Translations under genes and position numbers: made by a program
The notes under the pieces: model-generated
The model's input: only the letters and a program-made list of their open reading frames with translations
What the model was told of the DNA's origin: nothing
Database searches by the model: none
DNA from: Flavobacteriaceae bacterium
Lineage (GTDB): Bacteria; Bacteroidota; Bacteroidia; Flavobacteriales; Flavobacteriaceae
DNA length: 64,000 bases
Direction: 5' to 3'
Assembly (NCBI GenBank): GCA_965660845.1
Contig: CBFIBH010000002.1
Coordinates: forward strand, 290,631 to 354,630
Part shown: positions 3,826-59,323 of the stretch, in pieces
Numbering within the stretch: position 1 is the stretch's first letter
Layout: the number at the start of each line of letters is the position of its first letter

Positions 3826-5520
3826 ATGAAGCAACAAATCATTGAATGTGTACCTAATATTAGTGAGGGTTCAGACATTTTTAAAATTAATGAAATAGCA
3901 AATACTGTCAAACAAATTGAAGGTGTACAATTACTAGATATAGATCCTGGAAAAGCAACCAACAGAACCGTAATTACATTTGTTGGAGAACCCAATAAAG
4001 TAATTGATGCTGCTTTTTTATTAATAAAAAAAGCATCTGAATTGATTGACATGAGCAAACATTCTGGAGAGCATCCTAGATTTGGTGCCACAGATGTTTG
4101 TCCATTAATTCCAATTGCTAATATTTCTATGAATGAAGTTGTTGTGTATGCACACAAACTCGGTGAAAGAATTGGAAACGAATTGGGAATTTCTGGTTAC
4201 TTCTATGAAAACGCTGCCACTAAAAAAGATCGTAAAAACCTTGCAACTGTAAGAGCTGGTGAATATGAAGGATTAAAAAAGAAATTTTCTGATGCGAATT
4301 GGCAACCTGATTTTGGACCTAAAAATTATACTGAACAAGTAAAAAAATCTGGAGTAATAGCGATTTCTGCTAGAGATTTTTTAATTGCTTATAATATAAA
4401 TCTCAACACTACTTCTACTCGACGTGCCAATGCAATTGCTTTCGATATTCGAGAAGCTGGAAGAATAAAAAGAGAAGGAAATCCTATTATTGGTAAAAAA
4501 GTTTTGGATGAAAAAGGTGAACCTGTTCGAATTCCAGGAAAACTAAAAGCTGTTAAAGGTATTGGTTGGTATATAGAAGAATATGGTATAGCTCAAATTT
4601 CCTATAATTTAACTAACATTTCTATTACTTCAATGCATCAAGCTTTTGATGAAACAGTTGTTGCTGCTAATAAAAGAGGATTAAGAGTGACTGGTTCTGA
4701 ATTGGTTGGATTAGTCCCATTGAAAGCTATGTTAAATGCTGCTGATTATTTCTTGATGAAACAGCAACGATCACTTGGGATTAATGAAACTGAAAAGATA
4801 AAAATAGCCATTAAATCTCTTGGTTTGGACGATTTAAAACCTTTCAATCCAAAAGAAAGAATTATTGAATATGTAATGAATACTAATAGCAGCCAAAAAC
4901 TTATTGATTTTACAATTAAAGATTTTGCAGAAGAAACAGCCTCAGAATCTATGGCTCCAGGAGGTGGTTCTATCGCAGCATATGTTGGAGTACTTGGAGT
5001 TTCACTGGGCACAATGGTTGCAAATTTATCGGCTCATAAACCAGGTTGGGATGATCAATGGGAATATTATTCTGAATGGGCGCAAAAAGGTCAGAAATAT
5101 AAAAATGAATTATTGTTTTTAGTAGATGAAGACACAAATGCTTTTAATAAAATTATTGCTGGTTTTAGAATGCCAAAAACTACTGATAAGGAAATAGCTT
5201 CTAGAAAAGAAGCGATTGAAGAAGCAACAAAATATGCAACTGAAATTCCTTTTAAAGTTATGAAAACCGCTTTTGCCTCTATGGAAATAATGAAAGAAAT
5301 GGCTGAAAAAGGATTACAAAATTCCTTATCTGACGCTGGAGTTGGAGCATTGTGTGCTAGAACAGCTGTTATAGGAGCTTATTTCAACGTTAGAATCAAT
5401 GCTAAAGACATAAAAGATGTAACTTTTGCTAAAGAAATTTTATCAAATGCAGAAGAAGTGTATCAACAAACAGTTGCCTTAGAAAAAAAGATCATCAATT
5501 TTATTGACACTAAAATTTAA
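3826..5520 (+). CDS. ftcD: Bifunctional glutamate formimidoyltransferase / formimidoyl-THF cyclodeaminase
   Basis: IIECVPNISEG, TNRTVITF and HPRFGATDVCPLIP N-domain; SMAPGGGSIAA cyclodeaminase C-domain. Confidence 0.93.
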   Translation: MKQQIIECVPNISEGSDIFKINEIANTVKQIEGVQLLDIDPGKATNRTVITFVGEPNKVIDAAFLLIKKASELIDMSKHSGEHPRFGATDVCPLIPIANISMNEVVVYAHKLGERIGNELGISGYFYENAATKKDRKNLATVRAGEYEGLKKKFSDANWQPDFGPKNYTEQVKKSGVIAISARDFLIAYNINLNTTSTRRANAIAFDIREAGRIKREGNPIIGKKVLDEKGEPVRIPGKLKAVKGIGWYIEEYGIAQISYNLTNISITSMHQAFDETVVAANKRGLRVTGSELVGLVPLKAMLNAADYFLMKQQRSLGINETEKIKIAIKSLGLDDLKPFNPKERIIEYVMNTNSSQKLIDFTIKDFAEETASESMAPGGGSIAAYVGVLGVSLGTMVANLSAHKPGWDDQWEYYSEWAQKGQKYKNELLFLVDEDTNAFNKIIAGFRMPKTTDKEIASRKEAIEEATKYATEIPFKVMKTAFASMEIMKEMAEKGLQNSLSDAGVGALCARTAVIGAYFNVRINAKDIKDVTFAKEILSNAEEVYQQTVALEKKIINFIDTKI

Positions 5521-33567: not shown

Positions 33568-34284
33568 TTAAATTAAATTGTCTAAAGAATCAACAGCTAC
33601 AAAACGTTCAGTAGTAAATCCTTCAGCATAATCAACTCCAATTAATCTTCCTAAATCTTTTGCTCTATATTCTATACTATCCGTAAAGTTTTTGCTCGAA
33701 ATAGGGGTTTCTGGCTCTTTACTGTTAGCATCAAAAAATTGAGATTCATAAGCCATAACAGCTTCTATTTTTTTGTTCATAAAATTAGAAACATCAATCA
33801 CGAAATCTGGTTGAATATTTTTCCATTGTATATAATGATATACATGCTTAGGACGCCATTTTTCTTGAGTTTTATCATCTAAATACGTTGTAATTTTCTG
33901 TAAACCACTTAAGAAACAAGCATCTGACACAAGTTTACTTCCTTTTCCATGATCTATATGTCTATCGTCAATTGCATTACAAAGAACTATTTCTGGTTTG
34001 TATTTTCTTAACAATTGAATGATTGCTAATTGATGATTCTTATCATTTATAAAAAAACCATCAGCAAAGCCTAAATTGATTCTTACTTCTACATCAAGAA
34101 TCTCAGCAGCATTAGTTGCTTCTTTATCTCTAATTTCAGCAGTTCCTCTCGTTCCTAATTCTCCTCTAGTTAAATCTACTATACCAACTTTTTTTCCTAA
34201 AGAGACTTCTTTTGCAATTGTTGCTGCACAGCCTAATTCAACATCATCTGGATGTGCTCCGAAGGCTAATATGTCTAATTTCAT
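33568..34284 (-). CDS. bshB1: Bacillithiol biosynthesis deacetylase (PIG-L family)
   Basis: ILAFGAHPDDVEL, LTRGELGTRG, DRHIDH, YAEGF. Confidence 0.88.
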   Translation of the reverse strand: MKLDILAFGAHPDDVELGCAATIAKEVSLGKKVGIVDLTRGELGTRGTAEIRDKEATNAAEILDVEVRINLGFADGFFINDKNHQLAIIQLLRKYKPEIVLCNAIDDRHIDHGKGSKLVSDACFLSGLQKITTYLDDKTQEKWRPKHVYHYIQWKNIQPDFVIDVSNFMNKKIEAVMAYESQFFDANSKEPETPISSKNFTDSIEYRAKDLGRLIGVDYAEGFTTERFVAVDSLDNLI

Positions 34285-36991: not shown

Positions 36992-37864
36992 TTATTTCTT
37001 ATTCAAAAAATACATAACAATTACATGAGGAATTGTAATTGCAGCTAAGAAAGCAAAGAATAATGTAACAAATCTCACCTCTATTATTGTAGTCAAGTAA
37101 TAAATTAAGATAAGACCAGATATAGAAATTATCCAGTTTAAAGAGGAAGATTTGAAGTAACTGATTAAATTCTTTCTATCTAGATTTCCATATAAAGTTT
37201 CTATTTGGTCTTTTAATGAAGGAATAGAATGCCATAAAATAAAGTAAATAGCAAAAGCCCATAACAAAGAAGCCATCTTAAAAAGAAGAGTAAATAAAAG
37301 TATTAAGAAAAGTTCTTGGATGTAATTTATTCTATTCGAAAATTTTTTATGACTCAAAGAAGTTAAAAGTGGAGTTCCAATAAGACCAATCAATAGAAAG
37401 ATTGAAAAATAATTATCGTTTAACTGAACATTTGTTAGTTCATAGATTATTTGTGTAGTATCCTCCAAATTGAAATAAAATAGGAGTCCAAAAATTAAAA
37501 TACCGTAATGAATATATAATAATGTAGTTAAGTTATTCGGAGTTTTAATTTGACTATAAAAATGTTGTTCTCCAAAATGATAACAGCTAAATAAAATAAA
37601 AAGCATAAGAGCTGGAAATGCAAATTGATAAAATGCTAAAGACATAAAACCAATGATACATATATATAGCATCAAAAACTTTTTATTAGAAGCGTCTGAC
37701 TTTTTTGTTAAAAAATTGATTAATGAGATATCGTTTGCTCCGTGTAAAATCCCAACAGTTAGGATAAAGAAATAAGCAAGATAATCTTCGTAAATGGAGT
37801 TTATTTGAATCGTTAACCAAAGTAGAAAAACTGTACCTACTAAACTGAATATTGAGATTTTCAC
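36992..37864 (-). CDS. blh: Brp/Blh beta-carotene 15,15'-dioxygenase
   Basis: GILHGAND, YHFGE, WHSIPS, ITIPH His motifs; multi-TM; divergent from the rhodopsin gene. Confidence 0.93.
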   Translation of the reverse strand: MKISIFSLVGTVFLLWLTIQINSIYEDYLAYFFILTVGILHGANDISLINFLTKKSDASNKKFLMLYICIIGFMSLAFYQFAFPALMLFILFSCYHFGEQHFYSQIKTPNNLTTLLYIHYGILIFGLLFYFNLEDTTQIIYELTNVQLNDNYFSIFLLIGLIGTPLLTSLSHKKFSNRINYIQELFLILLFTLLFKMASLLWAFAIYFILWHSIPSLKDQIETLYGNLDRKNLISYFKSSSLNWIISISGLILIYYLTTIIEVRFVTLFFAFLAAITIPHVIVMYFLNKK

Positions 37865-37937
37865 AATTTAAAAATACAAAAAATATAGTTTGTTTATTTT
37901 TTTTAAGAAATATTTAAACATATATTATTTTATTTTC

Positions 37938-37945
37938 TATATTTG
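37938..37945 (+). promoter_or_regulatory. Sigma-A -7 element of proteorhodopsin
   Basis: TATATTTG, with TTTA at 37913-37916 as a near-consensus -33 element. Confidence 0.6.
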
Positions 37946-37970
37946 ATTCAACAATTTAAAACTAATAAAA

Positions 37971-38714
37971 ATGAATTTACTAATTAACATGTTCGCAGAT
38001 GTGAGCAAAATTGCAACAGACGACTACGTTGGTTTTACATTCTTTGTAGGATGTATGGCAATGATGGCTGCTTCGGCTTTCTTCTTTTTATCAATGAATA
38101 ACTTTGATAGAAAGTGGAAAACCTCTATTCTAGTATCAGGTTTAATTACTTTCATTGCAGCAGTACATTACTGGTACATGAGAGACTATTGGGCTTCAAA
38201 TGCTGAATCTCCTACTTTCTTTAGATATGTAGATTGGGTATTGACAGTTCCATTAATGTGTGTTGAGTTTTACTTAATACTTAAAGTTGCTGGTGCAAAA
38301 AAATCTTTAATGTGGAAATTAATCTTCTTATCTGTAGTAATGTTAGTTACTGGATACTTTGGAGAAGCTGTTTACACAACTGGAACTGGTCCTGCTTTAT
38401 GGGGATTTGTATCTGGAGTTGCTTATTTCGGAATCGTATATTTAATTTGGTTCGGAGAAGCAAAAAAATTAGCAGAACAAGCTGGTGGTGCAGTATTAAC
38501 AGCTCACAAAACATTATGTTGGTTCGTTCTTGTAGGTTGGGCTATTTACCCATTGGGTTACATGGCTGGAACTGAAGGATGGTATAGCTTCATTGGTGAG
38601 TGGGGTTTAAACATGGATGTTATTTATAACATTGGTGATGCTGTAAACAAAATTGGTTTTGGATTAGTAGTATATGCAGCAGCAGTTGCATCTAACTCAA
38701 CTTCAAAAGCATAA
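37971..38714 (+). CDS. Proteorhodopsin (DTE proton pump, Met at spectral tuning site, predicted green-absorbing)
   Basis: H66, R85-Y-V-D88-W-x-x-T92-x-P-L-M96-x-x-E99, and DAVNK retinal-binding Lys. Confidence 0.97.
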   Translation: MNLLINMFADVSKIATDDYVGFTFFVGCMAMMAASAFFFLSMNNFDRKWKTSILVSGLITFIAAVHYWYMRDYWASNAESPTFFRYVDWVLTVPLMCVEFYLILKVAGAKKSLMWKLIFLSVVMLVTGYFGEAVYTTGTGPALWGFVSGVAYFGIVYLIWFGEAKKLAEQAGGAVLTAHKTLCWFVLVGWAIYPLGYMAGTEGWYSFIGEWGLNMDVIYNIGDAVNKIGFGLVVYAAAVASNSTSKA

Positions 38715-49869: not shown

Positions 49870-50289
49870 ATGGAAATTCAGATAGAGAAAGGCAAAAAAA
49901 TTATTCTTTTTGATGGTGTTTGCAACCTGTGTAACTCATCTGTTAACAAACTGATTAAGTGGGATAAAAAAGATATTTTTTTATTTGCTTCACTTCAATC
50001 TGATTATGGACAAAAATTAATCTCCAATCTAAATATAGATACTTCAGAAATTGATTCCATTATTTTGTATGAACCAGGAGTTTCTTATGATATAAAGTCT
50101 ACAGCCATTTTAAAAATTACAAATACATTAGGTGGTTTCTGGAAATTGATGTCTGTCTTTTTTATTCTACCAGCTGGTTTTCGAAATATCATCTATGATT
50201 TCATTGCTAGAAATAGATACAAATGGTACGGAAAAAAAGAAAGCTGTATGATTCCGACTCCAGAACTAAAAGCAAAGTTTTTAGATTGA
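49870..50289 (+). CDS. DCC1-like thiol-disulfide oxidoreductase (DUF393)
   Basis: LFDGVCNLCN, YDFIARNRYKWYG. Confidence 0.92.
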   Translation: MEIQIEKGKKIILFDGVCNLCNSSVNKLIKWDKKDIFLFASLQSDYGQKLISNLNIDTSEIDSIILYEPGVSYDIKSTAILKITNTLGGFWKLMSVFFILPAGFRNIIYDFIARNRYKWYGKKESCMIPTPELKAKFLD

Positions 50290-50951
50290 TGAAATTTCCT
50301 ACCCAAGTTAACTGTGTTATTTTTGACATGGATGGAGTCATTATAGATTCTGAAGAATTACATAAAAGAGCGTATTACGAAACATTTCACTCCATCGGTG
50401 TTACTGTTTCTGGTGAACTCTATAAAACTTTAACAGGCTCTTCAACAGTGAATGCCTTTCAAAAATTGGTTACACATTTTGAATTAGATTTGAATCCCGA
50501 ACAGTTGGTTTTACAAAAAAGAAAACGATATGTAGAGTTTTTTGAAAATGACCCTAATTTGCAATTGGTTCAAGATGTTGAAGATTTAATTCAATATTTA
50601 TACAACAAAAAAATCACATTGGTTTTAGCCTCTTCTTCGGCGATGGTGAACATCAATCGTGTTTTTGATCGTTTTAATTTGCATAAATATTTTACCGCTA
50701 AAATTAGTGGAGCCGATTTAAAAGCATCCAAACCCAATCCTGAAATTTTTGAAAAAGCGGCAGTTTTAGGAAACACATCTAAAAAACATTGTCTGGTGAT
50801 TGAAGATTCTGATAATGGAGTAAAAGCTGCCAACGATGCAGGTATTTATGTTGTAGGATATCACAACCCTTTAGCTGATGACCAAACGTTAGAAAATGCT
50901 AATTATAGAATTCGTAATTTTATGGAATTAAAAGAATTATTGGAAAACTAA
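50289..50951 (+). CDS. HAD-family phosphatase (beta-PGM-like)
   Basis: FDMDGVIIDSE, LASSS, SKPNPEIF, IEDSDNG; ATG at 50289. Confidence 0.9.
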   Translation: MKFPTQVNCVIFDMDGVIIDSEELHKRAYYETFHSIGVTVSGELYKTLTGSSTVNAFQKLVTHFELDLNPEQLVLQKRKRYVEFFENDPNLQLVQDVEDLIQYLYNKKITLVLASSSAMVNINRVFDRFNLHKYFTAKISGADLKASKPNPEIFEKAAVLGNTSKKHCLVIEDSDNGVKAANDAGIYVVGYHNPLADDQTLENANYRIRNFMELKELLEN

Positions 50952-50983
50952 AATTGAACTCATTAACACATAATTGCTAAAAA

Positions 50984-51451
50984 ATGAAACTCTCGGAAAT
51001 TAAAGACATTTTAAGACAACAAAATACCATCTCCTTTGAATTGCCTAATGGTGATTTAGTTCCCAATCACTTTCATGTAACTGAAGTAGGAAAAATTACC
51101 AAACATTTTATAGACTGTGGTGGAACTGTTAGAAGTGAAGAAGTTGTTAATTTTCAACTTTGGAATGCTGATGATTATGATCACCGTTTACACCCAGAAA
51201 AGTTGATAAATATTATTGAGCTTTCTGAAAAAATCTTAGGAATTGAAGATTTAGAAATTGAAGTAGAATACCAAGCAGAAACGATTGGAAAATTTGGTCT
51301 TGAGTTTAATGGAACTCATTTCTTACTAACCACAAAACAAACAGATTGTTTAGCTAAAGACAATTGTGGCATTCCGGCACAAAAACCGAAAATGAAACTC
51401 TCAGAATTGCAAGCATCTAACCTATGCCAACCTGGGAGTGGTTGTTGCTAA
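50984..51451 (+). CDS. DUF6428-like protein with Cys-rich C-terminus
   Basis: VPNHFHVTEVG, FIDCGG, FQLW, VEYQ, C-terminal CQPGSGCC. Confidence 0.72.
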   Translation: MKLSEIKDILRQQNTISFELPNGDLVPNHFHVTEVGKITKHFIDCGGTVRSEEVVNFQLWNADDYDHRLHPEKLINIIELSEKILGIEDLEIEVEYQAETIGKFGLEFNGTHFLLTTKQTDCLAKDNCGIPAQKPKMKLSELQASNLCQPGSGCC

Positions 51452-51469
51452 TTTGGATTATAAAAACTT

Positions 51470-52630
51470 CTATTTCAAATTTTCTAAAATAAAATCTACT
51501 GTTTTGTTTTTATTGTTGTTCACAGCATAAGAGTCTGTTATATGATTGGAATTGACAGCGTATTTTTTATCTATCATATATTTAATATCGTTAACAAACT
51601 CTAAAGAAACCTTACCTGTAAGTAATAAGCTTAAGTTTTTACCTTCTTTATGATGGTAATCGTAAATTTTCTTTAAGCCAGTTAAATACAAATAATCTTT
51701 AGTAAAACCTCCTCCTCTATGTGCTCTTACAGCTACATAAAATGCTTGTTCTCTGTCTAAATCATAGGCATTATGTAAGAGTCTAAAGGTTCTAGAAAAC
51801 GAGTATCCTTTGGCCAAACTATCCACAGCAATCACTCTATATGCTAATTCTTTTAAACGCTTTATCGTTAAGTTTCCTGACATATACTCACTATAAACAG
51901 CCAAACCTTCTTGTGTTTCTTCGTTGTTTGGAAAACCATGAGAAAATATTTTTAACGGATGTAAAACTCCGTTCATGGTGGTGACCATATGCACACCAAT
52001 TTCGTGATTGGTTAAAATATTTATTTGATTTTCAGAAAATGTGTGATTTTCATTCAGCACCAACGATTTTATGGAGTTAGAAACCATTGCAATCGCTCCC
52101 ATTGTTTTGGAATATTTAATTTCATAGCTGAAATCGTAATTTTTAGAATATTCTCTAAAAAATTGCTCTGATTCTTTTGCTGAATATTTAGGCTGAAAGA
52201 TATCAGAATTTTCATCTTCACTTTCAAAATGCAATATAAACTTTGCATTCTCTACATCTTGTTCAGTTGGTGTTCCGAAAGAACGTAAACTGTTGTAATA
52301 GAAACGTTTTCCTTTCCCTACAGTTTCTATACATTGAATCAAGCCTGAATAGAAATAGATAATATCTTCATAAAAATCTCGTAGAACGTCGTCTTCTATT
52401 TTGCTAATAGACAACTTGAAGAATTCTTTATGAAGATTGAATTTATCAAAGTCTCTTTTAGGATATTTAAAAAGAGGATCTGTCAAATATTTAGAATTAA
52501 AGAACTTCTCCTTTTCAGATTCTATATTCACAGGATTCACATAATTTAAAAGCTCGATTTTTTTTACAAGCTCGTCAATTTGTGCATCAATTTCAAAAAG
52601 GATTTTATTCTTAACAGAAGTTGGTTTCAT
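51470..52630 (-). CDS. QEGLA-motif metallopeptidase (DUF1704/MATCAP-like)
   Basis: HEIGVH (HExxxH), TQEGLA, RGGGFTKDYLY. Confidence 0.88.
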   Translation of the reverse strand: MKPTSVKNKILFEIDAQIDELVKKIELLNYVNPVNIESEKEKFFNSKYLTDPLFKYPKRDFDKFNLHKEFFKLSISKIEDDVLRDFYEDIIYFYSGLIQCIETVGKGKRFYYNSLRSFGTPTEQDVENAKFILHFESEDENSDIFQPKYSAKESEQFFREYSKNYDFSYEIKYSKTMGAIAMVSNSIKSLVLNENHTFSENQINILTNHEIGVHMVTTMNGVLHPLKIFSHGFPNNEETQEGLAVYSEYMSGNLTIKRLKELAYRVIAVDSLAKGYSFSRTFRLLHNAYDLDREQAFYVAVRAHRGGGFTKDYLYLTGLKKIYDYHHKEGKNLSLLLTGKVSLEFVNDIKYMIDKKYAVNSNHITDSYAVNNNKNKTVDFILENLK

Positions 52631-52663
52631 TATAATTCTAAATCAAAAAAAGGAGAGGCAAAT

Positions 52664-53494
52664 TTAAACTTTATGCTTGGTATAAAAAGCTTCTGCGTGT
52701 TTTTTTAATTCCTTTTTTAGATAATTTTCTACAGCAAACACAACCTCTGGATACATGATTTGTTTTAGTTCATCACAATACACTTTTGCAATTTCTGTAG
52801 CCAAAACCAAAGTATTATTAAAATTCTGAGTGATAAACTTTAAAAAGTATCCATTTCCTTGAAAGGTGTCGTTCACTTTTGCTGTTTGCGGAATTCCATT
52901 AGGTAAAGACATCTTTTCTAATGAATGTCTCCAAGTTTCAATTTCAAACTCAAATCGTTCTTGATCAATATTTGATGTTCCTAAGTTCCAAGTAGGAACT
53001 TCTCTTGTCCATCGTTTCCAATTGTATGAATGCATATCATAGATAATACAAACTCCAAACTTTTCTTCTAGCTTAGAAATTAACGCATGTACAACTTTGT
53101 AAAAATTATGGTGTTTGGAAAGGCTCTTATCTTTCATTTCTTCTGATAAAGGATTCTGCCAGAGTTTTTTACCCCAAGCATCTTCGTAGATGGCAGAATC
53201 TGGAGCTCTGTTTAAATCGTATTCAAAACGAGAATCTAAACCAGCAATAACAATTGGATGTGTTTGCACCATTTCTTTTGTTGCAGGATCTTCTTCATAC
53301 CACCGTTCATATTCGGTATGCATACAATTGCTCCACAACTCTTGTCTAAATTGATGTCCGTCATGAACAGCTCCACATGCATAATGAACGTATTCTTCTA
53401 TTTTTAACGTAAAAGAATAATCTTGAGATACTGCATGAAACACTTCTTGATTATTAATTTTTTGAATGATTTGCTCTACAGATAATCTTTCCAT
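52664..53494 (-). CDS. N-formylglutamate amidohydrolase family protein
   Basis: AVHDGH, RWYEEDP, SRFEYDLNR, YDMHS; probable ATG 53494. Confidence 0.85.
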   Translation of the reverse strand: MERLSVEQIIQKINNQEVFHAVSQDYSFTLKIEEYVHYACGAVHDGHQFRQELWSNCMHTEYERWYEEDPATKEMVQTHPIVIAGLDSRFEYDLNRAPDSAIYEDAWGKKLWQNPLSEEMKDKSLSKHHNFYKVVHALISKLEEKFGVCIIYDMHSYNWKRWTREVPTWNLGTSNIDQERFEFEIETWRHSLEKMSLPNGIPQTAKVNDTFQGNGYFLKFITQNFNNTLVLATEIAKVYCDELKQIMYPEVVFAVENYLKKELKKHAEAFYTKHKV

Positions 53495-53495
53495 A

Positions 53496-54530
53496 TTAAG
53501 CATCATCAACCATTTTTTTGAGATCTGTTTTTCTTTGAAAAGCAGCATTTCTTTCTAAAACTTTGCTTTCCATAAAATCAACAACTTTTTCTTGAATTTT
53601 TGTTTTATATACTTTATTCATGTATGTAATTCCACCTGGACTCATCACATTGACTTCTACAAGTTTTCCACCAATTACATCAATACCAACAAAATATAGT
53701 CCGTCATTCATTAATCTTGGACCTATTTTGGCGCATAACTTCTTCTCTTCTGGAGTTAATTTATGCCTACTTACCGTTCCTCCTGCAGATACATTAGATC
53801 GATGATCTTTTTCACCTGGAATTCTTCTCATAGCACCAATTGGAACACCATTTAAAATTAAAATTCGAACATCTCCTTGATCTGCACCTTCAATATATTC
53901 TTGAAGGATTACATAATCTGAAGAACCATCCTTTTTATGAATGTAAAAATCTAACAAAGAGTTGATATTTCCCATCGCAGATTTTTCAATTAAAATGACA
54001 CCTGATCCACCAAAACCATCTAGTGGTTTTAAAATCATTTTATCAGAATCAGATTCTTCTATTACCTGAATTAAATAATTTTTATTCTTTGATACATGTG
54101 TAACAGGAATAATCTCATTATTTGGATCTTCAAAAACAGCTGTGTATAATTTATTGTTTGCTTCTCTCATTCCTCTTACTGAATTGATGATAAAAACATC
54201 ATCCTTTACCGAGTCTAAAAAGTTTAACATCAAAGGATCTAAAGGTGGTTCTGCTCTCATAAAAATCACATCAAAACCAGCTAAAGGAAGCATTTCTTCT
54301 CTTGTTGTAGTTTTTTTATAAAATGATTTTATACTCGTTGGAACTTTTTCGTGTCTATTTAAAAGAGTACAAAAAGCACTGGTAACACTGTTTCTAATGG
54401 TTAAATTTGAAGGTGTACAAATTGCAACTCCATGACCTCTTTTGGCACATTCATGAATTAAGGTTAGTGAAGTATCATTTTCTGGAGATTTTATATTTTC
54501 CCACGGATACATTAAAAAGCAAACATTCAT
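53496..54530 (-). CDS. Glutathione synthetase (GshB)-like ATP-grasp ligase
   Basis: FMRAEPP, ANNKLY, LKPLDGFGGSGV, GDVRILILNG, RSNVSAGG, GIDVIG..EVNVMSP. Confidence 0.85.
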   Translation of the reverse strand: MNVCFLMYPWENIKSPENDTSLTLIHECAKRGHGVAICTPSNLTIRNSVTSAFCTLLNRHEKVPTSIKSFYKKTTTREEMLPLAGFDVIFMRAEPPLDPLMLNFLDSVKDDVFIINSVRGMREANNKLYTAVFEDPNNEIIPVTHVSKNKNYLIQVIEESDSDKMILKPLDGFGGSGVILIEKSAMGNINSLLDFYIHKKDGSSDYVILQEYIEGADQGDVRILILNGVPIGAMRRIPGEKDHRSNVSAGGTVSRHKLTPEEKKLCAKIGPRLMNDGLYFVGIDVIGGKLVEVNVMSPGGITYMNKVYKTKIQEKVVDFMESKVLERNAAFQRKTDLKKMVDDA

Positions 54531-54542
54531 AATCTTATAATT

Positions 54543-55871
54543 TTATTTTCCTTTTACATTTTCGTAATTATCATCCCAGTTTTTGGGTTTAGGGTCGTGT
54601 AACTTATCTAAAGACTTTGCAACCATCATAGAAACTGTTGCGTCTCCGGTAACATTCACTACTGTTCTACACATGTCTAAAGGTCTATCAACTGCAAAGA
54701 TAAGAGCTATTCCTATAGGCAACAATTCTGCTGGAAAACCAATTGTTTCCAATACAATAACTAACATAACTATTCCAGCACTAGGTACTGCAGCACTTCC
54801 AATAGATGCCAACACAGATGTACCTACAATAACTAATTGATTGGTAAACGTTAATCCTTCTGGCCAAAGAACTTGCATAATAAAAACAGCTGCAATTCCT
54901 TGATACAAACTTGTTCCATCCATATTAACTGTTGCTCCTACTGGCAATACAAAACCTGAAACTTCTTTGTCAACTCCTAAATGTTCTTCAACTCTTTCCA
55001 TAGTTACTGGTAAAGTAGCAGCACTGGAGCTCGTTGAAAACGCTAATAATTGTGCTGGACTTATTTGTTTTAAAAACCATAATGGCGACTTTTTTACAAA
55101 AATACTTACAAGAAGAAGATAGAATCCTATCAATAAAACAAGACCTCCAAAAACACAAACTGCATACCATAAAAGCTTGACTAAAATTTCTGAATCATCA
55201 AATGATATGATAACATTTGCTAATAATGCAAAAACAGCATAGGGAGCAAATAACATTATCAAATCAACCATTTTCATGACCACTTCATTGAGTGAATCAA
55301 AGAAACTCATCAGTGGTTTTGCCTTTTTTTCTTCAATAAGAAGCAGACAAATACCCACAAATAAAGCAAAGAATATAACCTGTAGCATTGAAGCATCCGT
55401 TAAAGATTTAAAAATATTACTAGGAAAAATATCTACCAGAGGTTGTAAAGGTCCTGCATCTTGTTGAGCACTTGCTTTTTGTAATTTATCTGTAACTCCT
55501 GCATCATTAGCGTATTTTAGTTTAATTTTTTCAATAGTGTCTGCTGGCATACCATTTCCTGGTTTTATAGTATTTACAATACTTAAACCTATAATAACAG
55601 CAACCAAAGTAGTAATCATGTAAATAACTATGGTTCGTAACCCCATTGATTTAATTTTAGAAATATCTTTTAAATCTGATATTCCTTTAATTAAAGACGC
55701 TAAGATTAATGGTACAGCAATTAACTTTAAAAGATTGATGAATATTTTTCCGAATGGAGCAATCCAATCTGTGACAAATTGTTGACCATCAGAAGAATTC
55801 ATAATAAAACCAAAAATGATTCCTAAAACCATTCCGATAATAATTTTCCAATGCAATGCTAGTTTTTTCAT
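54543..55871 (-). CDS. Dicarboxylate/amino acid:cation symporter (DAACS, GltP-like)
   Basis: FSTSSSAATLP, GATVNMDGT, SIGSAAVP. Confidence 0.93.
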   Translation of the reverse strand: MKKLALHWKIIIGMVLGIIFGFIMNSSDGQQFVTDWIAPFGKIFINLLKLIAVPLILASLIKGISDLKDISKIKSMGLRTIVIYMITTLVAVIIGLSIVNTIKPGNGMPADTIEKIKLKYANDAGVTDKLQKASAQQDAGPLQPLVDIFPSNIFKSLTDASMLQVIFFALFVGICLLLIEEKKAKPLMSFFDSLNEVVMKMVDLIMLFAPYAVFALLANVIISFDDSEILVKLLWYAVCVFGGLVLLIGFYLLLVSIFVKKSPLWFLKQISPAQLLAFSTSSSAATLPVTMERVEEHLGVDKEVSGFVLPVGATVNMDGTSLYQGIAAVFIMQVLWPEGLTFTNQLVIVGTSVLASIGSAAVPSAGIVMLVIVLETIGFPAELLPIGIALIFAVDRPLDMCRTVVNVTGDATVSMMVAKSLDKLHDPKPKNWDDNYENVKGK

Positions 55872-55978
55872 TCAGTTTGTTTCAAATTTTCTGGTCTGAA
55901 AGGTAAAAAAAAATCTCCTAGTTTATCCTTATTAATTTGGAAGAAAGTTCTTTAAATTTGCTGCTTGAAATGAATTGA

Positions 55979-56290
55979 ATGGATAAACTAAAAGAACGCT
56001 GGGGTATTACATCCAATGTTCAGATTTTTTTAATCTTGTTAGTCTTTGCTATCAATGGATCTTTCGCTGCTTGGGTAGCAAATCCTGTTACAGAATTTAT
56101 AGGTATAAATAGGGAAACTACAAATGGATTTATATATTGGCCTTTACGTATATTGTTGATATTTCCTATTTATCAATTAACTCTCCCCATTGTTGGTTTT
56201 GTATTTGGTCAGTTTAAATTCTTTTGGAATTTTGAAAAGAAGTTTTTAGCTAGATTAGGTTTAGGGTTTTTGTTTAAATCAAAAGATTAG
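55979..56290 (+). CDS. DUF6787-like small membrane protein
   Basis: LKERWGI..VFAINGS..FGQFKFFWNFEKK. Confidence 0.72.
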   Translation: MDKLKERWGITSNVQIFLILLVFAINGSFAAWVANPVTEFIGINRETTNGFIYWPLRILLIFPIYQLTLPIVGFVFGQFKFFWNFEKKFLARLGLGFLFKSKD

Positions 56291-56294
56291 TTGC

Positions 56295-56933
56295 ATGAAA
56301 TTTGATGAATTTCTATCTTCTGTTGATTTATTGCGAACCATTCCATTAGGTGGCCAAAAAGCTCAATTTAAATTAGCTCCAGCTTTACGATTGGATTATG
56401 ATGAGATTAAGATTCATGCCAATCAACCTAAAAGAGCTGCAGTTTTAAGTCTTTTTTACCCAAACAAAGAGAATGATACTTGTATTTTACTAACAGAAAG
56501 AGCTAGTTACAAAGGCACTCACTCTGCACAGATAAGCTTTCCTGGTGGAAAAATTGACTCGACAGATTCAAATCTTGAAGAAACTGCTTTGAGAGAGACT
56601 TTTGAAGAAATTGGAGTTAGAGGAGAAAGCATTCATATTGTGAGAGAAATTACAGATGTTTACATTCCTCCTAGTAATTTTTTAGCAACACCTTTTTTAG
56701 CATATTCAACCGTAAAACCAAACTTTATTACCAATTACGAAGTAGAACAAACTATAGAAATTAAAGTTTCAGATTTATTAGATGATACTAATATTTCTGA
56801 AGTTTTAATGAACACTTCTTACATGGATAATTATCCTGTACCCTGCTTTAAATTAAACAATTATATTGTTTGGGGTGCAACAGGTATGGTGTTAAGTGAA
56901 ATCAAAGAAATGTTTAAGCAACTTTCTTTCTGA
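56295..56933 (+). CDS. Nudix CoA pyrophosphatase
   Basis: QISFPGGK..LEETALRETFEEIG Nudix box, VWGATG. Confidence 0.9.
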   Translation: MKFDEFLSSVDLLRTIPLGGQKAQFKLAPALRLDYDEIKIHANQPKRAAVLSLFYPNKENDTCILLTERASYKGTHSAQISFPGGKIDSTDSNLEETALRETFEEIGVRGESIHIVREITDVYIPPSNFLATPFLAYSTVKPNFITNYEVEQTIEIKVSDLLDDTNISEVLMNTSYMDNYPVPCFKLNNYIVWGATGMVLSEIKEMFKQLSF

Positions 56934-57814: not shown

Positions 57815-58279
57815 TTAGCCTAACCAAGAATTCAACATCCAAATTGTTTTTTCTTGTTCAGAAATAAAGTCGCTCATCATGGCGTTTGTTCCTTCATCAT
57901 TAGCTTCGTCTGATAAATCTAAAATTTCTCTTTCAATTTTCAGTAAAGTTGATAAAGACTCTACTATCAATGAAATAGCCTCTTCATCTTTAGCAACATT
58001 TTTTGCGATAGGAACTTTTGCTATTGCTATATAATCAGAAAACGTATGGAATGGAACTCCTTGTAATGTAAGAATTCGTTCTGCAGTCATGTCTACTTTA
58101 TCCTGTGCATCTGTATATAATTCCTCAAATTTTAAATGTAATTCAAAGAAGTTCTTTCCTTTTATATTCCAGTGTAAACCACGTAAACTCTGATAATATA
58201 TTTGAAAATTTCCTAATAAATCATTTAATTGATTAGTTAACTCTTTTGTTTGTTTTGTATCTAAACCTAGTATATTCAT
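57815..58279 (-). CDS. dps: Dps DNA protection protein
   Basis: HWNIKGKNFFELHLKFEELY..DMTAER ferroxidase signature, KTIWML. Confidence 0.95.
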   Translation of the reverse strand: MNILGLDTKQTKELTNQLNDLLGNFQIYYQSLRGLHWNIKGKNFFELHLKFEELYTDAQDKVDMTAERILTLQGVPFHTFSDYIAIAKVPIAKNVAKDEEAISLIVESLSTLLKIEREILDLSDEANDEGTNAMMSDFISEQEKTIWMLNSWLG

Positions 58280-58303
58280 TTTTTTTTATTTTTAAAATCT
58301 ATA

Positions 58304-58360
58304 CAAATTTAGTTTTAAATTATTTTTTCTTATCATAGTTTTTATCAATAGATTTAATAT
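58304..58360. promoter_or_regulatory. dps -7 element and candidate OxyR operator in the divergent dps/oxyR spacer
   Basis: TAAATTTG on the minus strand (58304-58311); ATAG-N7-CAAT-N7-ATAT at 58335-58360. Confidence 0.55.
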
Positions 58361-58381
58361 CTTTATCAAAATTTACTATAC

Positions 58382-59323
58382 ATGACAATCACCCAATTAA
58401 AATATGTTCTATCTGTTGCAGAACATGGTAACTTTACGGTGGCAGCAGAACATAGTTTTGTAACGCAACCCACATTGAGTATGCAGATTCAAAAATTAGA
58501 GGACGAATTAGATGTACAAATATTCAATCGTGCTAAAAAACCAATAGAATTAACCGATGTTGGAAAAAAAGTTGTTGAACAAGCTAAAATTATTGTTGAT
58601 GAGAGCACTCGAATTACAGATATAGTACATCAACACAAAGGATTTATTGGTGGTGAATTTAGATTAGGTATTATTCCGACAGTGATGCCAACTTTACTTC
58701 CTATGTTTCTAAATAATTTTACTCATAAATATCCAAAGGTCAAATTAATTATAGAAGAATTAACTACTGAGGAAATCATTAGAAAACTTACAGATGGTTA
58801 TATTGATGCTGGATTAGCTGCTACTCCACTAGAAAATGATGCTATCAAAGAACGTCCTTTGTATTACGAACCCTTTGTTGGCTTGATTCCAGAAGGTCAT
58901 CGATTGTTTTCTCAAAAAAAAATAGATGTAGATGAATTAGAAATGGATGACATCCTTTTATTAGAAGATGGACATTGTTTTAAAGATAGTGTGATTAATC
59001 TTTGCAGAAGCTACAAAACAGATAATAAAAAGGGGTTTCAATTAGAAAGTGGAAGTTTTAACACGCTTGTAAAACTATCCAAAGAGGGCTTAGGAATGAC
59101 GCTTCTTCCCTATTTACAAACTTTAGATTTGAATGAAAGTGACAAAAAGCACTTAAGAGAATTTAATTCTCCTCCACCAGCAAGAGAGGTAAGTTTAATT
59201 TATCATAAATCTCAATTGAAAATGCAACTAATTGAAGCATTGAAAACCACCATTGATGGTATTGTAAGAGGTGCTATTTCATTTAGTGATGTGAAAATTA
59301 TTTCCCCACTTCAAAAGAAATAA
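58382..59323 (+). CDS. oxyR: H2O2-sensing LysR regulator OxyR
   Basis: LysR HTH; LEDGHCFKDSVINLC with both redox cysteines (C-x8-C); divergent from dps. Confidence 0.92.
   Translation: MTITQLKYVLSVAEHGNFTVAAEHSFVTQPTLSMQIQKLEDELDVQIFNRAKKPIELTDVGKKVVEQAKIIVDESTRITDIVHQHKGFIGGEFRLGIIPTVMPTLLPMFLNNFTHKYPKVKLIIEELTTEEIIRKLTDGYIDAGLAATPLENDAIKERPLYYEPFVGLIPEGHRLFSQKKIDVDELEMDDILLLEDGHCFKDSVINLCRSYKTDNKKGFQLESGSFNTLVKLSKEGLGMTLLPYLQTLDLNESDKKHLREFNSPPPAREVSLIYHKSQLKMQLIEALKTTIDGIVRGAISFSDVKIISPLQKK

Follow-up and report, generated by a model that had tools for sequence, protein, structure and literature searches.

Why should a gene annotated as glutathione synthase sit among genes for two hydrolases and an amino-acid transporter in a marine flavobacterium? 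The question is raised by a 64,000-nucleotide stretch (hereafter, the window) of a Flavobacteriaceae genome (assembly GCA_965660845.1, contig CBFIBH010000002.1, positions 290,631 to 354,630), in which four neighboring genes encode a cation symporter of the aspartate/glutamate type, a GshB-like ATP-grasp amidoligase (called here T-ligase), a metallohydrolase with the fold of N-formylglutamate amidohydrolase (FGase), and a zinc peptidase of the MATCAP family. Judging from protein families and gene orders, the core of this cluster is an ancient and co-inherited triad: namely, a ligase of the NF009110 type, an FGase-fold amidase, and a MATCAP-type zinc peptidase. We estimate a chance of about one in two for the full reading developed below, in which this triad would act as an operon-encoded system where the ligase extends an acidic acceptor and a two-headed hydrolase removes what was added, in place of glutathione synthesis.

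The triad became evident from gene fusions and gene orders. When the MATCAP-like protein was used as the query against 1.84 billion cluster representatives, 2084 clusters were matched at E ≤ 1e-3 and 338 at E ≤ 1e-30. Among the best 150 representatives, 34 were fusions of about 665 residues with an active-type FGase domain (FGase::MATCAP); their N-terminal 270 residues match the FGase-like protein of the window at E 1e-24 to 1e-101, and Pfam finds both an FGase and a MATCAP domain in them. Another 62 representatives have an N-terminal domain of about 235 residues that is related to the FGase-like domain with an HHalign probability of 99.4%; this domain has lost the His and Asp-x-His motifs and is therefore considered to be a pseudo-enzyme (pseudo-FGase). 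The other 54 were unfused proteins or fragments.

Genomic contexts were then compared at 181 loci in all. A scan of a genome collection with a closer set of homologues gave, as the best 80 loci (L001-L080), only members of Flavobacteriaceae with 57-85% identity, while more distant contexts came from plasmid and chromid records, exact-protein look-ups, and a metagenome scan. The FGase-like gene is directly upstream of the MATCAP-like gene in all 80 Flavobacteriaceae loci, and the ligase gene is found upstream on the same strand in all 70 that have enough sequence. In eight loci of the fused type (Sanyastnella, Crocinitomicaceae, other Flavobacteriales-type members, and one labelled Arenicella), the ligase gene overlaps or abuts the gene of the FGase::MATCAP fusion, and none of the eight has the symporter. 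Also, on the chromid of Photobacterium sp. GJ3 the ligase gene overlaps a fusion gene of 665 codons, with an identical layout in P. damselae, and on pSymB of Sinorhizobium meliloti as well as in Pararhizobium the overlapping genes are ordered FGase, pseudo-FGase::MATCAP, and ligase. A metagenome scan for this last architecture returned 80 environmental loci, where the ligase is downstream in 63 of the 64 with room for it, and where 50 of 56 have an active-type FGase as a gene of its own upstream. From the four gene-order samples, therefore, every architecture combines a single ligase with one active FGase-type domain and a single MATCAP domain. Such clustering goes far beyond what chance would give: it is found across Flavobacteriaceae, environmental loci, Photobacterium, and Rhizobiaceae as well as in the form of fusions, and the adjacency or fusion has been kept over three phylum- or class-level lineages (Bacteroidota, Alphaproteobacteria, and Gammaproteobacteria). 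The two hydrolases are accordingly predicted to function as a single unit, by fusion or by pairing through the pseudo-FGase domain.

These counts bear on a first-pass annotation of the window, made from the sequence without database searches, which had taken the four genes as a co-conserved set that is common in Flavobacteria. The cluster is common there, and co-conservation holds for the ligase, the FGase-like protein, and the MATCAP-like protein across lineages; the symporter, in contrast, is encoded upstream on the same strand in 63 of the 70 Flavobacteriaceae loci and is absent from every non-Flavobacteriaceae locus examined. The conserved unit is thus a triad and not a tetrad. The fusion or pairing of the hydrolases, furthermore, had no place in that earlier model, nor had a rhodanese gene that will be considered below. 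Its remark that the cluster awaits a biochemical explanation agrees with our literature search, which found no functional or biochemical study of the triad, its fusions, its pseudo-enzyme variant, or its substrate; the parts belong to known families, and their combination appears to be uncharacterised in the literature searched. The source of the NCBI name "flavohemoglobin expression-modulating" was not traced.

As for individual examples, pseudo-FGase::MATCAP proteins are encoded at L084:6257-8143, at L087:5254-7152, and in L094-L173, accompanied by a separate active-type FGase gene in what looks like a pseudo-enzyme/enzyme pairing. In L174:1-3666, a ligase-fusion pair is located beside HamA and helicase genes (Hachiman-like defence genes) and a DNA methyltransferase gene, namely in a variable island.

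Is the ligase, then, a glutathione synthetase? It contains the Pfam domains GSH-S_N (E 1e-23) and GSH-S_ATP (E 3e-53), and its best-scoring model is NF009110 (PRK12458) with 451 bits against a cutoff of 408, residues 1-344 being aligned on the 349 positions of the model. On the GshB equivalog TIGR01380 (glut_syn), it reaches 235 bits, under the cutoff of 299, and on the RimK-family model TIGR00768 96 bits, under the cutoff of 143. NF009110 is likewise the best model for all the triad ligases scanned from Flavobacteriales and Rhizobiaceae (397-501 bits, with four of the five exceeding 408), and the same five ligases score 199-240 bits on TIGR01380, all below its cutoff. The window ligase is 58% identical to the Photobacterium sp. 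GJ3 ligase that adjoins the FGase::MATCAP fusion and 32% identical to E. coli GshB. By these scores the T-ligase is a member of a separate subfamily, NF009110, which travels with the two hydrolases, and it is very probably not a canonical GshB.

This separation is also seen at the level of residues. We aligned ten triad ligases with six canonical GshBs (from E. coli, S. meliloti [SMc00419], Tistrella, Acinetobacter, Legionella, where the gene adjoins gshA, and Paracoccus), and the sequences fell into three groups with about 30% identity between groups. The ATP-grasp catalytic residues K160, R210, R225, R233, D273, E281, and N283 (in the numbering of the E. coli enzyme) are invariant throughout the alignment, and the Gly-rich loop is conserved as well; the T-ligase has every residue required for ATP-grasp chemistry (ATP, Mg2+, and formation of an acyl-phosphate). 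Eight other positions (D9, F91, T99, E124, K209, T280, T285, and T288) are invariant in the six GshBs and replaced in the window protein and in every aligned triad ligase; these positions presumably face the substrates. Two of the replacements, K209 to Val/Ile and T288 to Gly, introduce the residues of RimK glutamate ligases. The divergent motifs that the first-pass annotation had pointed out are among the differences; EVNVMSPGG and RAEPP in the window protein are the counterparts of EINVTSPTC and RKDPP in E. coli GshB. Compared with the E. coli enzyme (PDB 1gsa), the T-ligase shares the three-domain ATP-grasp architecture but differs by two insertions and by about 20 additional residues at its C-terminus, and its gene is linked to those of two hydrolases instead of gshA. 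It occurs in users of bacillithiol and, in organisms with glutathione, as a second and differently regulated paralog.

The distribution of thiols and the physiology of two Proteobacteria point, indirectly but consistently, in the same direction. Complete gshA-gshB sets have been reported only in Proteobacteria, Cyanobacteria, one actinobacterium, and eukaryotes, with none in Bacteroidetes, and Polaribacter MED152 contains N-methyl-bacillithiol (PMC6282198). Within the window, bshB1 and ftcD were both recovered, as the first-pass annotation had stated, and a GshA-like protein was not seen among those window open reading frames (ORFs) that were scanned, in line with its statement that the window has no gshA. 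S. meliloti 2011 has the intact triad, including the ligase paralog, on pSymB, and yet a mutant of this strain in the chromosomal gshB (SMc00419) contains no glutathione by HPLC (PMC7063052). In P. damselae, furthermore, the ligase paralog on chromosome II (A0J47_RS17020) and the adjacent fusion are up 38- and 27-fold, respectively, at 1% versus 3% NaCl, while the canonical gshB on chromosome I changes by -1.6-fold, and polyamine genes are induced alongside the ligase and the fusion (PMC10308900). Upstream of the ligase in that species, a hypothetical gene of 56 codons and a DUF413/maoP-like gene (A0J47_RS17005 and A0J47_RS17015) rise 18.6-fold and 9-fold, and the divergent HdfR regulator goes down 2.3-fold (PMC10308900 supplement). 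We have taken the DUF413 and HdfR genes beside the Vibrionaceae module as the ordinary hdfR-maoP locus, outside the system, despite the co-induction of DUF413. Given bshB1 in the window, N-methyl-bacillithiol in Polaribacter, the S. meliloti gshB mutant devoid of glutathione, and the separate gshB of P. damselae, the module is very probably not the glutathione synthetase of the cell, and the "glutathione synthase" label is wrong to the same degree of confidence. The suspicion of mislabelling in the first-pass annotation is hence strengthened, also by the membership in NF009110 and by the eight replaced positions.

The peptidase matches PF08014 at E 1.4e-91, with 363 of the 365 positions of the model covered, and on the "QEGLA" equivalog TIGR02421 it scores 291 bits, under the cutoff of 338.65, which the S. 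meliloti homologue passes with 351 bits. The match to human MATCAP (PDB 7z5g; E 3.6e-7) includes the zinc site, in agreement with the proposed kinship of HExxxH/QEGLA proteins with MATCAP: HEIGVH of the window protein aligns with human HEIGTH, the Glu of which is replaced by Gln in the catalytically dead crystal form, QEGLA aligns with human EEGLA, and an R..RGGG.TKD..YL.G motif is common to both proteins. Across 23 diverse homologues, H209, E210, H214, E241, R302, G307, G308, D312, and K340 are invariant. With its zinc-site residues so conserved, therefore, the protein is expected to be an active metallopeptidase, presumably a carboxypeptidase. Eukaryotic MATCAP and its paralogs act on the C-terminal tails of proteins, and the founding member removes Tyr from tubulin; to our knowledge, the trimming of tubulin tails is the only function known for MATCAP, and we know of no tubulin-tail substrate in bacteria. 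Judged from their sequences, none of the three core proteins has a signal-peptide-like N-terminus, and their chemistry is therefore presumably cytoplasmic.

The partner hydrolase belongs to the FGase family in fold but is remote from HutG. It scores 48.8 bits on PF05013 (gathering cutoff, 28.9), and a sequence search of the PDB found no relative. Its AlphaFold2 model, predicted with a mean local distance difference test score (pLDDT) of 93.8, is closest to the FGase structures 2q7s and 2odf with template modeling (TM) scores of 0.65-0.75 and, more distantly (TM about 0.4), to the M14 carboxypeptidases 4a37 and 4b6z, which are of the cytosolic carboxypeptidase (CCP) type in bacteria. The fold, PF05013, and the His, Asp-x-Asn-Arg, and Asp-x-His-Ser motifs are shared with HutG, 2q7s, and 2odf; the window protein differs from them in that it is 14-15% identical, has no hut context, and is fused to or paired with a MATCAP-type peptidase. 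No variation is seen among 31 homologues in the motifs AVHDGH, YDLNR, and YDMHSYN or at the positions H44, D87, N95, R96, D153, and H155, and these six residues are putative metal ligands. A role as HutG in histidine catabolism was rejected: the protein scores 16 bits on the HutG equivalog TIGR02017, far under the cutoff of 279, hut genes are not adjacent, and ftcD covers formimino-glutamate.

In Flavobacteriaceae, the triad is accompanied by the symporter, the best solved relative of which is the "aspartate transporter" 9bgz (E 4e-91), with GltTk and GltPh ranking next. Its motifs SSAATLP, NMDGT, and DRPLDMCRTVVNVTGD are conserved, and DRPLDMCRTVVNVTGD aligns with IDRILDMARTTVNVTGD of 9bgz. 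The substrate-site Asp and Arg are kept, which, from work on GltPh and EAAT proteins, we take to be the hallmark of acidic-amino-acid carriers. The protein is GltP-like but reaches 260 bits against a cutoff of 638 for the GltP equivalog, and its exact substrate is therefore a matter of prediction. We regard the symporter as a Flavobacteriaceae-specific accessory of the module and as a predicted carrier of acidic amino acids.

How could these parts work together? In the reading that we prefer, the ligase would activate the carboxylate of an acidic acceptor as an acyl-phosphate and attach an amino acid to it, with L-glutamate or L-aspartate as the most probable choice; the acceptor would most likely be a small metabolite of the N-acyl or gamma-glutamyl type or a short peptide. 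The MATCAP-type head would then take off the C-terminal residue, and the FGase-type head would cut the remaining amide bond between the acyl group and glutamate. The outcome would be a regulated cytoplasmic cycle of building and breaking (store/release or write/erase), to which the symporter encoded at the operon head in Flavobacteriaceae may contribute by supplying or recapturing the amino acid. A small molecule or short peptide is favored as the substrate because of the GshB-type N-terminal domain of the ligase, the known substrates of the FGase family, and the presence of amino-acid-type regulators and a transporter; an AsnC/Lrp-type regulator is encoded directly beside the ligase gene in three loci (L082:1642-5977, L179:934-4979, and L178:4407-4883). 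Comparable logic is known from the animal N-acetylaspartylglutamate cycle, in which RIMKLA/B adds Glu to an N-acyl amino acid, glutamate carboxypeptidase II removes it, and aspartoacylase deacylates the product. By analogy, the triad may combine ligase, carboxypeptidase, and deacylase in the same way, although its hydrolases are of other families and the genes of the animal cycle are unclustered. Cyanophycin synthetase with its hydrolases is another precedent for a ligase that is matched by hydrolases.

Several observations weigh against this proposal. The acceptor and the added amino acid are identities that we infer, and a cycle of building and breaking that is encoded by a single operon appears futile if left unregulated; alternatively, the hydrolases might process a precursor or proofread. 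The ligase passes the "glutathione synthase" equivalog NF003573 with 284 bits against a cutoff of 272, a narrow pass that explains the automatic name, as in public records. The argument from S. meliloti holds only if the paralog is expressed under the conditions used. Parts of the module are also found alone: Vibrio sp. HDW18 (L083:6149-8140) has the fusion but no ligase in an otherwise syntenic hdfR-DUF413 locus, Pseudoalteromonas (L085:6968-8248) has a solo MATCAP-like gene by a type III pyridoxal-phosphate (PLP) decarboxylase gene and bet genes, and Ensifer adhaerens (L180:5001-6047) has an extra solo copy of the T-ligase, so that the parts can work apart. The AlphaFold2 model of the fusion has a pLDDT of 85, a predicted TM score of 0.67, and a low-confidence linker, values at which the two heads may plausibly pack together but which do not establish a fixed interface. 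In 67 of the 80 Flavobacteriaceae loci, furthermore, a two-domain rhodanese resembling 3-mercaptopyruvate sulfurtransferase is encoded between the ligase and FGase genes. It is absent from the window operon and from all non-Flavobacteriaceae loci; the window belongs to the minority (7 of 70) in which the ligase and FGase genes abut, and it has either lost the rhodanese or never had it. No model proposed here explains the rhodanese. Finally, in one Flavobacteriales lineage, bshC, which encodes the enzyme that adds cysteine in bacillithiol synthesis, and a DinB_2-family gene follow the FGase::MATCAP fusion gene with a 4-nucleotide overlap at L175:7019-9086, an adjacency of bshC that is unique among the 181 loci. 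Both the rhodanese and bshC are hints of sulfur or thiol chemistry, for which our preferred reading has no account.

The precedent of tubulin suggests a different kind of substrate, in which the ligase adds Glu (or Tyr or another residue) to the acidic C-terminus of a protein and the MATCAP and FGase/CCP-like heads trim it. The homology to enzymes that work on protein tails and the distant resemblance of the FGase-like model to CCP-type carboxypeptidases would fit such a tail code, as would the ligase, which is RimK-like at two specificity positions and matches RimK structures at E about 1e-12. Indeed, RimABK, the system for poly-glutamylation of ribosomal protein S6, provides a precedent: an ATP-grasp ligase of the RimK/GshB clade shares one operon with a protease that trims its product (PMC11957791, PMC4741518), and the T-ligase has the RimK-like "D-[IV]-R" and "SPG" residues. 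The ligase is, however, much nearer to GshB (E 4e-38) and retains the GshB-type N-terminal domain; the module hydrolases are of the MATCAP and FGase types and not a retropepsin, and no S6-like target is linked. No acidic-tailed candidate target is encoded in or beside the module in any lineage examined, the characterised enzymes of the FGase family act on small N-acyl amino acids, and the nearby regulators are of the amino-acid-sensing type. We thus regard a protein-tail code as unlikely. The eukaryotic tubulin-tail enzymes (TTL/TTLL, MATCAP/TMCP, and CCP) do share with the module the MATCAP family, an ATP-grasp ligase, and, in the CCP deglutamylases, a carboxypeptidase fold that the FGase-like protein distantly resembles, but the module ligase is GshB-like and not TTL-like, the FGase-like domain is not M14 by sequence, and there is no tubulin. 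It would be a long shot to see in the triad a prokaryotic equivalent, and perhaps even the evolutionary origin, of the tubulin-tail toolkit, writing and erasing Glu or another residue on an acidic bacterial protein C-terminus in response to ionic or amino-acid status, with the pseudo-FGase::MATCAP fusions as heterodimeric erasers.

Could the module instead serve thiol or sulfur metabolism, with a ligase that makes or extends a cysteine-containing peptide or conjugate (an analogue of glutathione, or a compound related to bacillithiol or gamma-Glu-Cys) and hydrolases that recycle it? GshB is indeed the closest characterised relative and the NF003573 cutoff is passed, the rhodanese is frequent in Flavobacteriaceae operons with another rhodanese nearby in L176, and bshC follows the fusion in L175. 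The module is present, however, both in organisms with glutathione (Photobacterium and Rhizobiaceae) and in those with bacillithiol (Flavobacteria), the rhodanese is confined as described above, bshC is adjacent in only one of 181 loci, and the S. meliloti mutant as well as the eight replaced GshB-invariant positions speak against it; a thiol role is in our judgment quite improbable. A conjugate for polyamine or osmotic control, in which glutamate or a glutamyl peptide would be coupled to a polyamine or another amine, or would be condensed into peptides of lower osmotic activity as salinity falls, with the hydrolases reversing the reaction, would account for the induction at low salt together with polyamine genes. 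It has a precedent in glutathionylspermidine synthetase/amidase, where an ATP-grasp-type ligase comes with its own amidase. Genes for arginine decarboxylase, agmatinase, and a deoxyhypusine-synthase-like protein are adjacent to the module in L082 and L179, and the solo MATCAP-like gene of Pseudoalteromonas is next to a PLP decarboxylase gene; yet these polyamine neighbors are seen in only two related loci of 181, and the low-salt data come from one study of one species, which leaves this idea with a slim chance. That the annotations are literally correct, namely that a glutathione synthetase, HutG, and an unrelated peptidase are neighbors by chance, is scarcely credible: the NF003573 score and a PF05013 score above the gathering cutoff would be in its favor, but the HutG score, the lack of adjacent hut genes, and the formimino-glutamate route given by ftcD stand against it, as do the TIGR01380 score under cutoff, the adjacency and fusion kept across three lineages, and the fact that gshA was not seen among the scanned ORFs of the window and is not reported in Bacteroidetes (PMC6282198).

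The question has consequences beyond this locus. In thousands of genomes, the ligase bears the label "glutathione synthase" and its partner that of "N-formylglutamate amidohydrolase", and such annotation misleads: P. damselae, for example, would seem to respond to low salt through glutathione, or bacillithiol-using Flavobacteria to synthesise glutathione. The module spans Bacteroidota, Alphaproteobacteria, and Gammaproteobacteria, responds strongly to salinity in the fish pathogen P. damselae, and is genetically tractable through its location on pSymB of the model symbiont S. meliloti. Behind it there could be a glutamate-containing metabolite that is new, or a new type of reversible modification of bacterial proteins, and the substrate of a bacterial MATCAP relative, if found, would tell us the function of this peptidase family before there was tubulin.

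The layout of the locus in the window is summarised in Table 1. That four same-strand genes with these family assignments form the cluster was corroborated by the list of ORFs, Pfam, and NCBIfam. The genes are transcribed in the order symporter, ligase, FGase-like, and MATCAP-like. As listed, the ORF of the FGase-like protein overlaps the ligase gene; all the fused homologues begin at its residue 19, and we therefore revised the start to the internal ATG at 53494 (M19 of the ORF), which is most likely the true start. The intergenic gaps then become 12, 1, and 33 nucleotides, within the 1-33 nucleotides given by the first-pass annotation. On its minus strand, the four-gene block is free of predicted terminator-like sites. 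Based on the small gaps, the shared strand, and the lack of such an internal site, the four genes are predicted to be one operon.

Table 1. Positions in the window of the cluster, of its motifs, and of other genes mentioned in the text.
Feature	Position	Strand	Basis	Remark
SDF/DAACS-family Asp/Glu-type cation symporter, 442 residues	54543..55871	(-)	PF00375, E 4.5e-125	operon gene 1
GshB-like ATP-grasp amidoligase (T-ligase), 344 residues	53496..54530	(-)	GSH-S_N PF02951 + GSH-S_ATP PF02955; NF009110	
RAEPP motif of T-ligase	54243-54257			
EVNVMSPGG motif of T-ligase	53631-53657			
FGase-fold metallohydrolase (N-acyl-glutamate amidohydrolase-like)	52664..53494	(-)	PF05013	longest ORF 52664-53548, 294 residues
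MATCAP/DUF1704 ("QEGLA") gluzincin-type zinc peptidase, presumed carboxypeptidase, 386 residues	51470..52630	(-)	PF08014	
HEIGVH motif of MATCAP-like protein	51989-52006			
QEGLA motif of MATCAP-like protein	51899-51913			
Divergent intergenic region between symporter gene and DUF6787 gene, 107 nucleotides	55872..55978		sequence and ORF layout	presumed operon promoter region
ftcD	3826-5520		TIGR02024, 348 bits (cutoff 221)	
bshB1	33568-34284		TIGR04001, 308 bits (cutoff 182)	
Brp/Blh beta-carotene dioxygenase gene	in 36992-38714		TIGR03753, 146 bits	
HAD-hydrolase ORF	region 49870-50951	(+)		
DUF6428 gene	50984-51451	(+)		C-terminus ...CQPGSGCC
Dps-like gene and LysR/OxyR-like regulator gene, divergent	57815-59323			2-3 kb upstream of operon

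A sigma-70 promoter scan gave fewer matches than shuffled controls, with a model that is not applicable to Bacteroidota. Rfam families had zero matches over positions 50900-56400, and PADLOC anti-phage defence models had zero matches for all four proteins. The organism is a Polaribacter-like marine member of Flavobacteriaceae, with the best named relatives at 85% identity, and a search of sequencing runs turned up the nucleotide sequence in marine metagenome DNA runs only.

In the related operons, the rhodanese is exemplified by L001:5972-6805, which scores 208 bits on NF008557 (cutoff, 250). It is followed by a conserved ORF of about 108 codons in 39 of the 80 Flavobacteriaceae loci (e.g., L001:6810-7136), and in L032 and L041 this ORF is fused to the rhodanese as a protein of 387 residues. 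The ORF has zero matches in Pfam or NCBIfam; a TerB-like label was considered and for this reason dropped. A faint TerB match sits on a different downstream ORF, in L174.

Around the operon of the window, the DUF6428 gene is convergent with the MATCAP-like gene, with 18 nucleotides between the stops, and neighbors the module in only 2 of 80 related loci. The ORF of the haloacid dehalogenase (HAD)-type hydrolase, as listed, overlaps that of a DCC1-like thiol-disulfide oxidoreductase by 67 nucleotides; family alignments begin near residue 23-30, and its true start is therefore probably an internal Met. Beside the Brp/Blh gene, a membrane protein of 247 residues is encoded that is proteorhodopsin-like by eye and has no NCBIfam match; the pairing of Brp/Blh with proteorhodopsin is typical of marine Flavobacteria. 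The divergent pair of the Dps-like gene and the LysR/OxyR-like regulator gene is syntenic in several Polaribacter-like relatives (L005, L006, and L027).

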